DNA from: Candidatus Nanohaloarchaea archaeon
Lineage (GTDB): Archaea; Nanohalarchaeota; Nanosalinia; Nanosalinales; Nanosalinaceae
Reading direction: 5' to 3'
NCBI GenBank assembly: GCA_042217695.1
Contig: JBDGSE010000014.1
Coordinates: forward strand, 1 to 49,296
DNA length: 49,296 bases
Every line of letters starts with the position of its first letter. Position 1 is the stretch's first letter. Shown piece after piece: positions 15,001 through 18,000 of the stretch. Made by a program: the position numbers.

Positions 15001-18000
15001 CGTGTCGTTGGACACTGCTTTCCCGACCGCGAGAGGGCTGTAGGCCGTTAACATAACACCGTTATCCGCACAGTACTCCAGCATATCCTCCTGGCTGTTG
15101 AACGGGTTGTACTTCACCTGGTTCGTAACTATGGGAGAATCCGAGAGCTCTCTCGCCCGTTCCAGCTGTTCGATCGAGAAATTGCTCACACCGATGTGGT
15201 TGACCTTTCCCGATTCCTGCAGCCGGTTCATCGCGTTCACGGTCTCCTCCAGCGGTACAGCGTCGGAGGGCGCATGGATAAGCAGGAGATCTATGTAATC
15301 TGTCTTCAGGCGGTCAAGACTGTCATCTACCGACTCCAGGACACGTTCCCAGGTCATGTTGGGTCTGTCAAGTTTTGTAACCAGGAAAACCTCGTCCCGG
15401 TCCACCTCCGACTCCTCTATCGCAGAGCCTACCGCGGCCTCGTTGCCGTACATCTGTGCTGTGTCAACGTGTCGGTAACCTGCTTCGAGACCCTCGATAA
15501 CAGCTTTTTTGCATTCCTCCCCCTCCATCCGGGCTGTTCCCAGTCCCAGCGAAGGTATATTTACGCCGTCCACCTCCACATACTCCATAGTAAAAAATTC
15601 CTCTCGATACTCAAGAATCTACCGGTCCTGCAAGGATTAAAGAATCTAACCGGTCAAAACACTCACAGGCCTCGGTGGCTCAGCCGACTGGTTACGCTCA
15701 GTCGACACGCAATACAAGCTACTGTTTGCCTGTAAGCCTCGGTGGCTCAGCCTGGCTAGAGCGGTCCCCTCGTAACTGGTTACGCTCAGTTCCTACGAAA
15801 ACCGGAAAACGGTTTTCTAGGGCAGAAGACCTCTATGAGGTCTTCAAGACACCATGCGAACAGCATGGCCTTCAGTTAAAGATCAGGGCTTTGCGAGACA
15901 GGGACAGGTCGCGGGTTCAAATCCCGCCCGGGGCTTTTTTGGCGCGGGATTTGAGGGGTTCGAATCTGAAGTTCTGACAGAGAATTTCTGCCCCAGAAAA
16001 TCCTGAGGATTTTCGTAACCGTCCGGGCATACTATCTGGATTCTGCGACCAGTTTGAATGTTTCCTCCCTTTCCACAGCTTCCTCCACTTCAAGGTGTTC
16101 AGAGACTTTTTCCGCCGCTGTTTCCGCGTCAAAGCGTCCTTCCAGTGGAGGGCCGCGTTCCCCGCTTCCGGACCGGCTCCAGTCGAACACCACGAGTTTT
16201 CCGCCATCAAGTATCTCCGCAAAGTTCTCTAGCGCGGCGTCCACATCCAGCTCGTGGAAGGAGAATACAGAGAAGATTGCGTCCACGCGACCGGTATCCA
16301 GGTCCGAGGCTCTTGACCGGACGAGTTCGACGTTTCCCGGGAGCCCTTTCTCCCGGTAGTGGTGGTGCATCTCTTCCTGGAAATCGACGGCGTAAACCTT
16401 TTTCGCTTTCGAGGCCAGGTCATCGGTGAAGAAGCCTGTGCCGCTGCCTATCTCTGCCACGATGTCTCCGTCCACGTGCTCCAGAAGTTCCTCTCTTGAG
16501 ACGTACCGGTAGCGGGCATCATCCTCCAGTTTCTCCGCTGACGCGGCATCCATCACGTGGTCGTCCATACATCTTCTTGAGGCCTCACGGTTTTATTTCT
16601 CTGAGTGAAAAGCTTTCCGTGAGGAAGAGCTACCTGGTCCCCGGCCTGTTAATGGCTCTGAAACCCGCGACAGCGCAGTCGCTGAACTCTTCGCAGCTGC
16701 AGCAGTTCTCCCAGGTACCGGAGTTCTCGGTCTGGATGATATTCGGTGCTCTACTGTTGCAGTTCGCGCTGGAGTCCGCGCTCATCTACCTCTCGGCACG
16801 TTTCTTCCTGGGCGAGTCGAAGCCCTGGAAGGCGGCCAGCATCGCAGGAATCGGCATTCCTTTCCGCATGCTGACAGGGATGATGCCTTTCATCGGTATC
16901 TTGGTCGGGCTGTGGGGTTACTGGTATCTGGCCCGTATAGGGTTCGATGCCAGCTATTTCAACGCTTTCCTGGTCGTCGCACCGGTATACGCGTTTGAGA
17001 TAGGTCTCCGAGTTTTTATAGCGGGATTGGCCTGACGGAAAGAAGATTTAAACCAGCTTCACAATTTTTCTATAGGGTGAACTGAACTGGAAGAAAGAAT
17101 CGGAGATCTGGCCGGCGAAGTATGGGACTACCTCCAGGAGGAGGATGAGAGTTCCCTGAGCGGGGTTTCACGGGCTATCGATGCACCGCAGTCGAAGGTA
17201 AACATGGCGCTGGGTTGGCTGGCCCGCGAGGGAAAACTGGATTTCGTGGACAACGGCCGCGGCACAAGCGTACGCCTGCGGTAGGAAAAAGTTTAATTCT
17301 CCGACCACTAATTCTGGTCCATGTCTCTCAGAGCAGGAGCAGAAACTATAGTTGAACAGTGTCTCGATGTCAAACCCGGGGAAAAAGTGGTCGTGGTCAA
17401 CGACGGCAACGACCCCGAATTGATCGACGCAGTTCTTGAAGTGCTGGACGAGACCGGCTGCAAGCACGAGCTGATGGAGTACCCGGAGCCGGAGAACCAC
17501 GGCACCGAACCCCCAGAGGACGTTGCGGAAGCCATGAGAGACGCCGACGTTTTTATCGCCCCGACAAAGAAGTCGCTCAGTCACACCCAGGCGAGGGAAG
17601 AAGCCTGCGAGGCAGCTACAAGAGGGGCGACCCTTCCGGGCATCAACAGAGAGATCTGGAACTCCAGTTTGCAGGCGGACTACTCCCGGGTGGAGGAGAT
17701 AACCGAGAAGGTGTACTCGATGCTGGAGGAAACCTCTGAGGTCCGGGTGAAGACGCCCTCCGGCACGGACTTCACCTTTGAGGTGGACTTTGACTCTTTC
17801 TTCACCGACACAGGCATGATAGAGGACCCCGGAGAGTTCGGGAACCTGCCGGCGGGAGAGGCCCATGGAGGCGTCCGTAACGGTTCAGGCACCATAGTTA
17901 TCGACCATTTCCCGTTCGCACCTTCCGGCACGGAGGTGAGGGTCGAGGATTCCCGGGTCGTGGACATCGAAGAGGCCGGTTCCTCGGAACTGGGACGGAA

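Follow-up and report, generated by a model that had tools for sequence, protein, structure and literature searches.

The window, a stretch of 49,296 nt from the genome of a Candidatus Nanohaloarchaea archaeon (G000; 757 kb, 82.7% complete), harbors a tRNA-Thr(CGU) gene together with two copies of a short module that begins with a conserved hairpin (Table 1). Copy A lies between a 17-nt copy of the tRNA-Thr 5' end and the intact tRNA-Thr(CGU) gene. It is truncated, with a total length of 50 nt (15686-15735), and does not include the right-end hairpin of the copies of 88-135 nt. The direct repeat formed by the displaced fragment begins with position 1 of the tRNA and stops within the D-loop. Copy B opens the intron, whose sequence is 80% identical to that of the tRNA-Lys(CUU) intron on contig C12 (G000:C12:6314-6494, 150 bits).

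Table 1. Features of the tRNA-Thr(CGU) locus, numbered from the first nucleotide of the window
Feature	Position	Strand	Remarks
AT-rich box ATTAAAGAA	15636..15644	+	~25-33 nt 5' of the displaced fragment; sequence reading only
Displaced tRNA-Thr(CGU) positions 1-17, direct-repeat copy 1	15669..15685	+	Identical to 15736-15752
Module copy A, hairpin 1 GACTGG-TTACGC-TCAGTC	15686..15703	+	6/6 pairs; model R1 46.7 bits
Module copy A, conserved linker GACACGCAA	15704..15712	+	Sequence
Module copy A, imperfect hairpin 2 and last base	15713..15735	+	
tRNA-Thr(CGU), whole	15736-15935	+	Rfam tRNA 41.8 bits; ARAGORN
tRNA-Thr(CGU) exon 1, positions 1-37	15736..15774	+	Nucleotides 1-17 form direct-repeat copy 2
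Module copy B, hairpin 1 AACTGG-TTACGC-TCAGTT	15774..15791	+	R1 34.3 bits; first A is tRNA position 37
Intron, 125 nt, at 37/38, multi-hairpin	15775..15899	+	ARAGORN
Intron 3' tail	15894..15900	+	MFE fold: CGAG 15894-15897 pairs with C32-G35 (15769-15772), central helix H
tRNA-Thr(CGU) exon 2, positions 38-73	15900..15935	+	Rfam, ARAGORN
T-run right behind the discriminator	15936..15941	+	Sequence reading

The tRNA-Thr transcription unit may have its archaeal TATA element in the AT-rich box and likely has its terminator in the T-run. By reading the sequence, we found no comparable AT-rich box ~27 nt 5' of 15736. Comparison of the tRNA-Asp loci of two related genomes, G022 and G005, likewise revealed a conserved AT-rich box preceding a displaced 5' fragment. 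We rejected the reading of the 5' fragment of the window as part of a split or permuted tRNA, given that the downstream gene is complete. Moreover, a bulge-helix-bulge (BHB) motif between 15685|15686 and 15752|15753 is impossible because the end of such an intron is identical, and not complementary, to the end of the exon. The segment 15300-15763 is covered with 0-1 differences by contigs from two other sequencing runs of the same study, which possibly derive from the same sample as the window's assembly.

The module consists of RACTGG-TTACGC-YCRGTY followed by (G/C)AYACGCAA and a hairpin of variable sequence, and about 22-27 of its bases are nearly invariant across phyla. Among 30 covariance-model matches from relatives, hairpin 1 was paired in 171 of 171 cells, with double changes at four of the six pairs (22 cells), a level that none of 500 shuffles reached. 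The G6.U13 pair was present in 29/29 copies and U4.G15 in 11/29. The region of hairpin 2 showed a mean z of -2.9, with values below -2 in 74 of 100 copies. The strand with the lower MFE over the module and 36 additional nucleotides was the sense strand in just 32 of 101 copies, which bears out the preliminary description of this locus, where the complementary strand had been found to fold better. Folding energy thus gives no preference for the sense strand, and we base the strand argument on the pattern of G.U pairs in hairpin 1.

The window and eight element-bearing loci matched only tRNA among Rfam 15 families at gathering threshold; the earlier statement that the module belongs to no Rfam family is therefore correct. 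Boxes C (RUGAUGA) and D (CUGA) are absent from the module. In the full Nanohaloarchaeota element, words resembling RTGATGA occur in the right part beside a GAACTT-TCAG-AAGTTC hairpin, and neither a proper D box nor a guide was recognized there. Two other candidate functions were considered and set aside: a self-cleaving ribozyme or pseudoknot (no complementarity between loop and linker was seen and no Rfam ribozyme matched) and an intrinsic terminator (T-runs often trail the trailer copies, but intron copies need read-through). One correction concerns the extent of the module, which belongs to a longer element, 50-135 nt in length, and covers just its left end.

All the counts given previously for G000 were reproduced. 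ARAGORN returned 25 tRNA calls, one of which was spurious (a 554-nt 'intron'), and 15 of the 24 calls kept have introns of 51-144 nt. The genome contains 145 TTACGC sites, of which 11 are flanked by at least five of six possible pairs (~4.4 expected), and nine hairpins are paired at 6/6 positions against ~0.4 expected, assuming a pairing probability of 6/16. All nine of these sites then carry (N)AYACGCAA or a near variant. Two sites with 5/6 pairs and without the linker (C2:22125 and C40:7280) look like chance. The copies of G000 are found in or near Thr, Arg, Ile, Lys, Ser, Met, Leu and Pro tRNA genes and behind one ORF. Many contig ends of this assembly fall inside T-arms or close to modules.

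We searched other genomes with a covariance model of 28 positions, built from copies of G000 whose loop does not vary and for this reason still biased toward the UUACGC loop. The preliminary description had cautioned that conservation of the inner stem and loop was a product of fishing with exact words. This applies in part to the loop, whose invariance comes to some extent from the model and the pattern themselves, and holds less well for the matches of the model, which are partly independent of exact words. Matches were obtained in 29 of 41 relatives (E<=0.1) and in 39 of 70 genomes of the phylum (E<=0.001). At the latter threshold the remaining 31 of 70 gave no match, including G009, G014, G015 and G018, which are reported to be 96-99% complete. 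All five genomes tested outside the phylum (defined as missing from the 70-genome phylum list, and by record titles) also contained matches. A pattern scan of genome contigs detected the module in records titled Woesearchaeota, Iainarchaeum and Nanoarchaeota; 72 of the 84 pattern matches had a 6/6 hairpin (chance estimate ~3.5%), and a few matches in bacteria are due to chance. Model scores of 30-49 bits were obtained in dozens of genomes, including closed genomes of a single contig. Viral contigs (IMG/VR) yielded just two matches, both in coding sequence with an unpaired 'hairpin' and both attributable to chance, and we rejected a viral or plasmid origin on this ground. The sequence comparisons support a single element family occupying many non-orthologous tRNA sites in more than one phylum.

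The 30 matches in relatives comprise nine copies flush behind a complete tRNA, seven behind a displaced tRNA 3' fragment, eight at intron starts (in seven different tRNAs) and six at non-tRNA sites. The 24 copies linked to a tRNA all share its orientation and start 0-3 nt from position 73 or 37. Nanohaloarchaeota copies lie flush 3' of tRNAs, at intron starts or right behind stop codons, and the element of Woesearchaeota-like genomes is an intron in the T-loop (59/60). Copies at long ORFs start -4 to +2 nt relative to the stop codon; the element was also found at a duplicated ORF 5' end and, inside an ORF, as an in-frame 90-nt tandem repeat. The element reaches beyond tRNA genes. The earlier view of a mobile family spread across DPANN phyla is hence retained for the family, its many sites and its presence in more than one phylum, and abandoned for its homing to tRNA genes only. 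At least six copies are antisense to the neighboring tRNA (G000 C31:290 and C28:130; L075; L140 twice; L067/L074), which rules out a role for them in the transcript of that tRNA.

Many copies are flanked by direct repeats of their target. A repeat of at least 13 nt of the sequence abutting the module, located at most 233 nt downstream, was found for 29 of 90 evaluable copies; the mirrored control was itself high (14/82) and does not constitute a clean null, the enrichment probably resulting from nested or tandem units of element and repeat. Exactly anchored repeats of 14-45 nt enclosing 50-135 nt were found for 11 of 44 Nanohaloarchaeota copies. The duplicated segments include tRNA 5' ends, tRNA 3' ends in either orientation, ORF 3' ends with their stop codon (45 nt in L034 and 21 nt in L028) and an ORF 5' end (23 nt in L079). 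Overall the repeats measure 6-45 nt, without a fixed length of target-site duplication, and their outer edge tends to match the gene boundary. The module had previously been placed at tRNA processing junctions. The positions are real, but they are not in themselves coincidences with RNA processing, since the 5' fragments ending in the D-loop, as well as many of the cases after a tRNA 3' end, are duplications of the end of the target gene that flank an insert.

Inside tRNA genes, the element acts structurally as part of a BHB intron, as supported by predicted folds. Removing the intron of the window restores a canonical tRNA-Thr: the match to the Rfam tRNA model runs from 15736 to 15935 and includes a 127-nt insert in the anticodon loop, and ARAGORN agrees. 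In the MFE fold, helix H (15769-15772 with 15894-15897), the 3' bulge and helix h are predicted; ACA 15898-15900 would be the 3-nt bulge with the 3' splice site at 15899|15900, a position deduced from tRNA geometry. The 5' side is relaxed, with U36 and A37 paired, and 15775-15779 pair with 15786-15790, such that hairpin 1 would stack as h' on the exon-intron helix. A 4-nt tail complementary to positions 32-35 is present in four of the four anticodon-loop copies of G000. A complete BHB, with a 4-bp central helix between two 3-nt bulges and outer helices h and h', is found in nine of 11 T-loop copies (h is the T-stem, H is TTCR/YGAA and the 3-nt bulge is AGT), and in these nine the downstream exon restores the T-stem and the TTCAAAT loop. 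The proposal that the hairpin serves as helix h' is sound with regard to the BHB intron and needs amendment in full-length introns, where the 5' AACTGG strand may pair instead with a distal YCAGTT at the intron 3' end, hairpin 1 offering an alternative local partner. G000 encodes EndA (C8:8409-8690) and RtcB (C24:1700-2989). RNase Z is present in G000 and scored above cut-off in 34 of 41 genomes. RNase P RNA was detected in 25 of the 41 genomes searched, and gave no match in G000, which is 82.7% complete. We also considered that RNase P and RNase Z might be lacking and that the hairpin would let EndA trim tRNA ends, which the presence of RNase Z and the 25 genomes with RNase P RNA led us to reject.

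Congeneric genomes differ in the position of their copies. At the syntenic tRNA-Asp locus, G005 presents an element and repeat 3' of an intron-free tRNA, and G022 presents no 3' element, a 33-nt intron, and a 7-nt 5' fragment with a 43-nt insert. At the syntenic tRNA-Arg(GCG) locus, the module is intact in G017, and in G059 it has decayed and is split by a nested 51-nt insert, which indicates that the G059 copy is not under purifying selection. We infer from these comparative data that the element is mobile, as well as the direction of its transposition. As previously stated, a transposase, integrase or reverse transcriptase was not found: PF00589 (integrase), PF01797 (Y1 transposase), PF07282 (TnpB) and PF00078 (reverse transcriptase) gave no match in G000, serine recombinases being outside the search. 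No longer element with the same ends was seen, and no insertion polymorphism within the population appeared in the reads and contigs of three DNA runs, which otherwise yielded only tRNA-Thr exons of other organisms and the contigs covering 15300-15763.

Together, we consider it probable that the module is the conserved left-end domain of a family of protein-less insertion/intron elements of ~50-135 nt that is widespread in DPANN archaea. New copies would arise in DNA, each inheriting the strand-specific fold, and our working guess is a copy-and-insert process that fills in a staggered or resected break. A point against this reading is that no known transposase produces repeats of variable length whose outer edge tends to lie at a gene boundary. 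Copies would persist where the gene survives, that is, in three situations. In tRNA loops (D-loop, 37/38 and T-loop 59/60), the element would bring the intron half of the BHB: its 5' AACUGG strand would form helix h' with its own proximal or distal YCRGUU, and its short 3' tail (UGAA-AG in the T-loop; NNAG and 2 nt in anticodon loops) would form helix H with the exon, allowing the splicing endonuclease and RtcB to excise the intron copies from the transcript. When the element lies flush at a gene end, the duplication of a 6-45-nt piece of the gene across the insert would leave one intact gene copy. Short intergenic spacers would be the third situation. In the window, the truncated copy would sit in a 67-nt leader (displaced 5' fragment and element), presumably cut off by RNase P, and the full intron copy at 37/38 is presumably excised by EndA.

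The module could instead be a host-functional RNA motif, such as a protein-binding or small-RNA domain acting as a 3'-end or processing signal, which would use tRNA processing sites (RNase Z, EndA) or mRNA 3' ends to obtain defined ends while selection keeps its 22 or more bases. The extreme conservation of loop UUACGC and linker ACGCAA across phyla would be expected under this explanation, and the invariant G.U pair and full covariation point to a fold at the RNA level. The 22-27 near-invariant bases are unusually strong conservation for a selfish repeat and fit a host function better than a mobile element. The strict co-orientation and spacing of the 24 tRNA-linked copies, the narrow range of the copies at stop codons and the T-runs often found behind trailer copies also fit. 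However, the 31 phylum genomes without a match, several of them 96-99% complete, indicate that the motif is nonessential; the orthologous copy of G059 has decayed and been interrupted, congeners differ in copy position, and antisense and leader copies cannot be part of the host transcript. A special signal for end processing seems unneeded given the RNase Z and RNase P RNA results (the latter in 25/41 genomes and none in G000), and the flanking target duplications would be left unexplained. We therefore regard a host function as unlikely. A chance or assembly artefact, in the form of low-complexity or tRNA-like sequence or of contigs mis-joined at repeated T-arms, would agree with the many G000 contigs ending in T-arms or near modules and with the chance matches in some bacteria. 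It is hardly credible given the nine perfect copies against ~0.4 expected, the 30-49-bit matches in dozens of genomes, closed ones included, and the recovery of 15300-15763 in contigs of two other runs.

The repeats could also represent scars of integrase-type recombination, with the repeats as attL/attR identity blocks and the module as a conserved arm beside attP, carried by a plasmid or virus family or by minimal non-autonomous derivatives moved in trans; the introns would then come from intron-carrying copies of attP, following the model of Sugahara et al. (2012). Some of the repeats extend from the T-arm or T-loop up to position 73, some from position 1 into the D-loop, and others take up the terminal 21-45 nt of an ORF together with its stop codon, and the identity blocks of tRNA-integrating elements, as presented in PMC3293823, behave like such gene-end-reaching repeats. 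The geometry of hairpin 1 also corresponds to a small recombinase core (6-bp inverted arms and a 6-nt spacer), and the displaced 5' fragment beside an intron-gaining tRNA corresponds exactly to the Caldiarchaeum case. Nevertheless, G000 has no PF00589 match, the repeat-bounded inserts are all 50-135 nt long and gene-free, a gene-specific attP would be needed for every copy, and IMG/VR viral contigs are devoid of the module except for the two chance matches. In addition, the compensatory and G.U pattern fits a fold of a single strand and not the protein-binding arms of a duplex. This origin appears quite improbable to us.

If the family consists of mobile elements as we favor, its closest structural analogs include MITEs, REP sequences and IS200/IS605-derived repeats, which are short, non-coding and multi-copy, end in hairpins or inverted repeats, often lie behind genes and can form strand-specific imperfect hairpins, as here. 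Like MITEs, the element is short, non-coding and multi-copy and occupies non-orthologous sites. Unlike them, it presents duplications of variable length and no fixed one, no cognate or partner transposase was found, and the terminal inverted repeat is imperfect, with only ~10 of 14 positions matched in the T-loop form. Its insertion is also positioned by gene or tRNA structure and not by a target sequence.

Introners are transposable elements that carry part of the splicing signal and create new introns in many genes. An archaeal counterpart would differ in relying on the proteins EndA and RtcB acting on a BHB, in having tRNA genes as hosts and in residing in archaea with ~1 Mb genomes. The eukaryotic introners are presented as transposon-derived spliceosomal introns in PMC11282704. 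A bolder reading, to which we give limited credence, is that the element is such a counterpart: a self-propagating BHB intron with its own half of the splice motif that moves through RNA intermediates produced by the splicing enzymes of the host itself. The terminal inverted strands would serve h', and the tail would match the universal T-loop or the anticodon loop. The blocks formed by a 5' exon piece and the element before position +1, or by the element and a 3' exon piece past position 73, would be DNA fossils of splicing intermediates, a view based on the observation that they have the exact composition of the two 'two-thirds' splicing intermediates. If true, EndA and RtcB together with a step of RNA-templated DNA synthesis or repair would constitute a transposition machinery conserved across DPANN.

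The best reading of our insertion element is that it adds a new variant to the known "tRNA intron transposition". In Thermoproteales, transposition of tRNA introns was inferred by Fujishima et al. (2010), according to a review (PMC4090602) and to the bioRxiv preprint 10.64898/2026.10.13.758758; as in our case, the mechanism is presumed to act on DNA and the BHB requirement restricts where copies persist. As these accounts describe it, that transposition concerns one order, whereas the element core is common to at least two phyla here. Further differences from the Thermoproteales introns in these accounts are copies outside exons (trailers, leaders, behind stops and in an ORF), direct target duplications flanking many copies, and defined terminal hairpins with a tail pre-matched to the universal T-loop. 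In Caldiarchaeum subterraneum, disruption of tRNA genes is described as driven by integration (Sugahara et al. 2012, PMC3293823). There too, a displaced tRNA-Thr 5' fragment is reported upstream of an intact, intron-gaining tRNA-Thr, and a tRNA direct repeat flanks the insert. That insert is described as 1.8 kb long and recombinase-coding, in contrast to the 50-135-nt, non-coding, multi-copy inserts of the present family, for which a recombinase was not found.

The route by which archaea gain protein-spliced tRNA introns has been an open question since intron transposition was inferred in Thermoproteales, and a 2026 survey of Asgard archaea (10.64898/2026.10.13.758758) likewise found none that is general. 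The element, whose ends are recognizable, provides a concrete and easily searchable handle on this question, with copies frozen at different stages: a spliceable intron, a fresh and identical target duplication, a decaying relic and a nested insertion. It also accounts for incomplete tRNA sets returned by standard finders and for assembly breaks at tRNA loci, and the tRNA-fragment duplications that it leaves could pass for split tRNA genes. The presence of the element in closed genomes and in lineages with cultured representatives makes the gain of these introns a testable question.

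The tRNA-Thr(CGU) locus of the window carries two copies of a module composed of a first hairpin (RACTGG-TTACGC-YCRGTY), an ACGCAA-type linker and a variable second hairpin. Copy A lies in a 50-nt element bracketed by a 17-nt direct repeat (15669-15685 = 15736-15752), and copy B (AACTGG-TTACGC-TCAGTT) starts the intron, its leading A being A37. The displaced fragment is the probable transcription start of this unit, as suggested by the AT-rich box ahead of it; RNase P would take off the 67-nt leader and EndA would cut out the intron. This intron (15775-15899) and that of tRNA-Lys(CUU) (C12:6314-6494) present ~80% identity over ~180 nt including exon flanks and diverge in the 4-nt tail pairing with the anticodon loop. 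At 15941-15975, directly past the T-run of tRNA-Thr, GCGCGGGATTTGA repeats in reverse-complemented form the T-loop and T-stem 3' strand of the same tRNA and is followed by the T-arm-like GGGGTTCGAATC.

Features of the tRNA-Thr(CGU) locus in the window, and related sites on other contigs of the source genome (C numbers) and at two loci in other genomes (L numbers)
Feature	Position	Basis or remark
AT-rich box	15636-15644	upstream of displaced fragment
Displaced copy of tRNA-Thr positions 1-17	15669-15685	sequence reading
Copy A, hairpin 1 (GACTGG-TTACGC-TCAGTC)	15686-15703	
Copy A, linker GACACGCAA	15704-15712	
Copy A, imperfect hairpin	up to 15734	
Complete tRNA-Thr(CGU)	15736-15935	Rfam tRNA, 41.8 bits
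tRNA-Thr(CGU) intron, 125 nt	15775-15899	ARAGORN
497-aa frame	L028	ends 4 nt before module start
206-aa frame	L034	ends 3 nt before module start
564-aa frame	C12	stop codon overlaps module's first base
Second module	C31:188-215; C2 upstream of 25193; C4 intron 3' end	
Second module, inverted	after C16:9509; after C27:48	
tRNA-Arg UCU gene, 3'-end copy downstream	C4:3529-3754	
tRNA-Leu AAG gene, 3'-end copy downstream	C17:1525-1720	
tRNA-Ile UAU gene, 3'-end copy downstream	C2:25193-25382	
tRNA-Gly GCC gene, 3'-end copy downstream	C16:9376-9509	
Contig breaks in T-arm	C1, C22 (both ends), C27, C28, C36, C37; C30 (end)	first group at ~position 31

In the source genome (757 kb in 44 contigs, of which C6 is the window; 55% G+C, 82.7% complete), we obtained the same counts as the preliminary description: 15 of 24 retained ARAGORN calls contain an intron (51-144 nt), and 11 of 145 TTACGC sites are flanked by at least 5 of 6 pairs. 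Nine of these 11 sites present 6/6 pairs and the ACGCAA linker; ~0.4 perfect hairpins were computed to occur by chance. The tRNA was the sole Rfam match, which agrees with the statement that the module matches no Rfam family. A covariance model of 28 positions was built from 7 copies of this genome, whose invariant loop it carries over. At E ≤ 0.1 it matched 29 of 41 relatives; at E ≤ 0.001 it matched 39 of the full set of 70 phylum genomes, each matching genome containing 1-8 matches.

Among 30 model matches in relatives, all hairpin-1 cells are paired (171/171) and double-sided changes affect four of the six pairs (22 cells), which was equalled by none of 500 shuffles. The 36 nt past the linker are more stably folded than their shuffles (mean z of -2.9; below -2 in 74 of 100 copies). 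As previously remarked, the sense strand has the lower total MFE (module plus 36 nt) in only 32 of 101 copies, which counts against a strand-specific fold. However, the pairs G6.U13 (29/29) and U4.G15 (11/29) of hairpin 1 in relatives would be mismatches if read from the opposite strand; we regard the fold of the module as real and strand-specific.

The module extends beyond the phylum: the model matched all five genomes (G070-G074) that came from the pattern scan below and are absent from the 70-genome set. An exact-pattern scan with one genome per species returned at least 116 stretches, of which 80 loci were examined; 72 of 84 matches in these loci form the 6/6 hairpin (~3.5% estimated by chance given the bases fixed by the pattern). 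The titles among the matches listed include Nanohaloarchaea, Asbonarchaeaceae, Iainarchaeum, Nanoarchaeota, Nanobdellati and many Woesearchaeota (bins from groundwater, trench and oxygen-minimum zones). Eight matches listed (seven bacterial records and one titled Micrarchaeota), with 3-5 of 6 pairs, resemble chance matches.

We classified the insertion sites of the 30 model matches from Nanohaloarchaeota relatives. Nine start at or beside the discriminator of a complete tRNA, seven come after a displaced tRNA 3' fragment, eight start introns (Lys CUU, Lys UUU, Ala CGC, Thr GGU, Val UAC, Val CAC, Glu CUC and Ile GAU) and six lie away from tRNAs. All 24 tRNA-linked copies share the orientation of the tRNA, and among the non-tRNA copies the module can start close to the end of a long open frame (L028 and L034; in the source genome, C12). 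The full Nanohaloarchaeota element reads hairpin 1, linker, hairpin 2, ATTCTGATGATC and hairpin GAACTT-TCAG-AAGTTC; in the source genome its right end adjoins the 5' ends of tRNAs Ile UAU and Leu GAG. A second module, RTGATGA-N-GAACTT-TCAG-AAGTTC, is recurrent in this genome; in relatives, the full element has it as its right end. It adjoins tRNA 5' ends and closes the Arg UCU intron, and its inverted form adjoins tRNA 3' ends.

In all four anticodon-loop copies of the source genome, the 4-nt tail (CGAG, TCAG, AGAG, GAGG) is complementary to positions 32-35. The MFE fold of pre-tRNA-Thr contains the anticodon stem, a 3-nt bulge (15898-15900) and a helix of 15769-15772 with 15894-15897, lengthened by two more pairs, on which hairpin 1 stacks. 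This stacking fits the initial reading of hairpin 1 as the outer helix h' of a bulge-helix-bulge motif, but in T-loop introns h' can instead form between the 5' AACTGG and a distal YCAGTT, and hairpin 1 is therefore an alternative local pairing. The T-loop is the most frequent site in Woesearchaeota-like genomes. Downstream sequence completes hBHBh' in nine of 11 T-loop cases, with central helix H = TTCR/YGAA, a 3-nt bulge AGT, a T-arm restored by the T-stem 3' strand and an intron of 81-102 nt at position 59/60, ending in ...GCTCGCAA-YCAGTT-NN-TGAA-AG; the D-loop copy at L128 has H = GTGG/CCAC. Genes for EndA and RtcB were found in the source genome. The tRNA genes at L084, L128, L081, L098 and L104 are interrupted in the D-loop, anticodon loop and T-loop by two or three introns each, and the Rfam tRNA model misses them even with the threshold relaxed to E ≤ 1.

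We looked within 233 nt downstream for a repeat of the sequence that abuts each module, and 29 of 90 evaluable distinct copies have one of at least 13 nt (≤1 mismatch). The mirrored control gave 14 of 82, a high value that we attribute to nested or tandem units of element plus repeat (e.g., L036, L109 and L140). Anchoring on an exact 12-mer revealed repeats of 14-45 nt around 50-135 nt in 11 of 44 Nanohaloarchaeota copies. The duplicated piece is a tRNA 3' end (starting in the T-arm or T-loop and reaching position 73) or its reverse complement (L075, L140), a tRNA 5' end (position 1 to D-loop), the last 21-45 nt of an ORF including the stop codon (L028, L034) or the 23 nt that open an ORF (L079). 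The 5' fragments described as cut in the D-loop are each one half of a direct repeat. At L109 (CAYSVS010000006.1:19988-20601), the element and a 38-nt target segment form a 90-nt tandem repeat in frame within an ORF (starting ATGTTTAAT...), which encodes a 30-residue repeat.

For nearly every tRNA gene of the source genome, a copy of the gene's 3' end (from the T-arm or T-loop as far as position 73) lies 40-110 nt downstream. These copies are decayed to varied degrees, and a common trailer (TTCACG..GGATTTGAT..AGAAGCTCCC..GGCGAGCTTCGGGTTCAAATC) stands ahead of several of them. In one MAG (DAOVBM01), at least eight copies (L077, L080, L092, L094, L099, L111, L125, L137) have ~40 nt upstream (..AGAAGGCTCTGCGTCCCCGYC) and ~60 nt downstream in common, the module being internal to a longer repeat. 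Many contigs of the source genome stop inside a T-arm (GGTTCAAATCC) after ~30 nt, several modules are no more than 300 nt away from a contig end, and contigs overlap inside tRNA genes (C36 end/C32 start; C37 start/C28 start). The short tRNA list of this genome is therefore partly an assembly effect.

Congeners differ in these insertions. The syntenic tRNA-Asp of G005 has no intron and is followed by an element with a 16-nt repeat; that of its congener G022 has a 33-nt intron without the 3' element, and its upstream AT-rich box, which is conserved, is followed by a 7-nt 5' fragment plus 43-nt insert. The flanks of tRNA-Arg(GCG) are alignable on both sides; the module there is intact in G017 and decayed in G059, where pairing is lost and a 51-nt insert interrupts it.

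Introns are described as 'transposing' among tRNA genes of Thermoproteales by an unknown mechanism in PMC4090602 and a 2026 preprint (10.64898/2026.10.13.758758). PMC3293823 links integration to fragment duplication and intron gain in Caldiarchaeum, and PMC5829648 notes that in DPANN tRNA genes are heavily disrupted and tRNA sets incomplete. The element was undescribed in the full-text literature searched, a scope outside which most subscription journals fall.

The source genome (82.7% complete) yielded no match to the integrase (tyrosine recombinase) family PF00589, Xer types included, to the families of Y1 transposase, TnpB and reverse transcriptase, or to archaeal RNase P RNA (RF00373); RNase Z was found. 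Among the 41 genomes searched for RNase P RNA, 25 gave matches; most of these score under the gathering threshold, which is exceeded in 7 of the 41. Viral contigs contained no module apart from two chance matches. The flanking repeats have no constant length, and their outer edge often coincides with a gene boundary; we know of no transposase that these two properties fit. The flanking blocks match two-thirds splicing intermediates in composition, which suggests that transposition may follow an RNA route, albeit one with no reverse transcriptase match in this genome. We favor, with some reserve, the view that the module forms the left-end domain of an insertion/intron element that is small and mobile. 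Such an element would survive where it can be spliced out, as its sequence supplies half of the bulge-helix-bulge motif, where duplication leaves the gene whole, and in short intergenic spacers.
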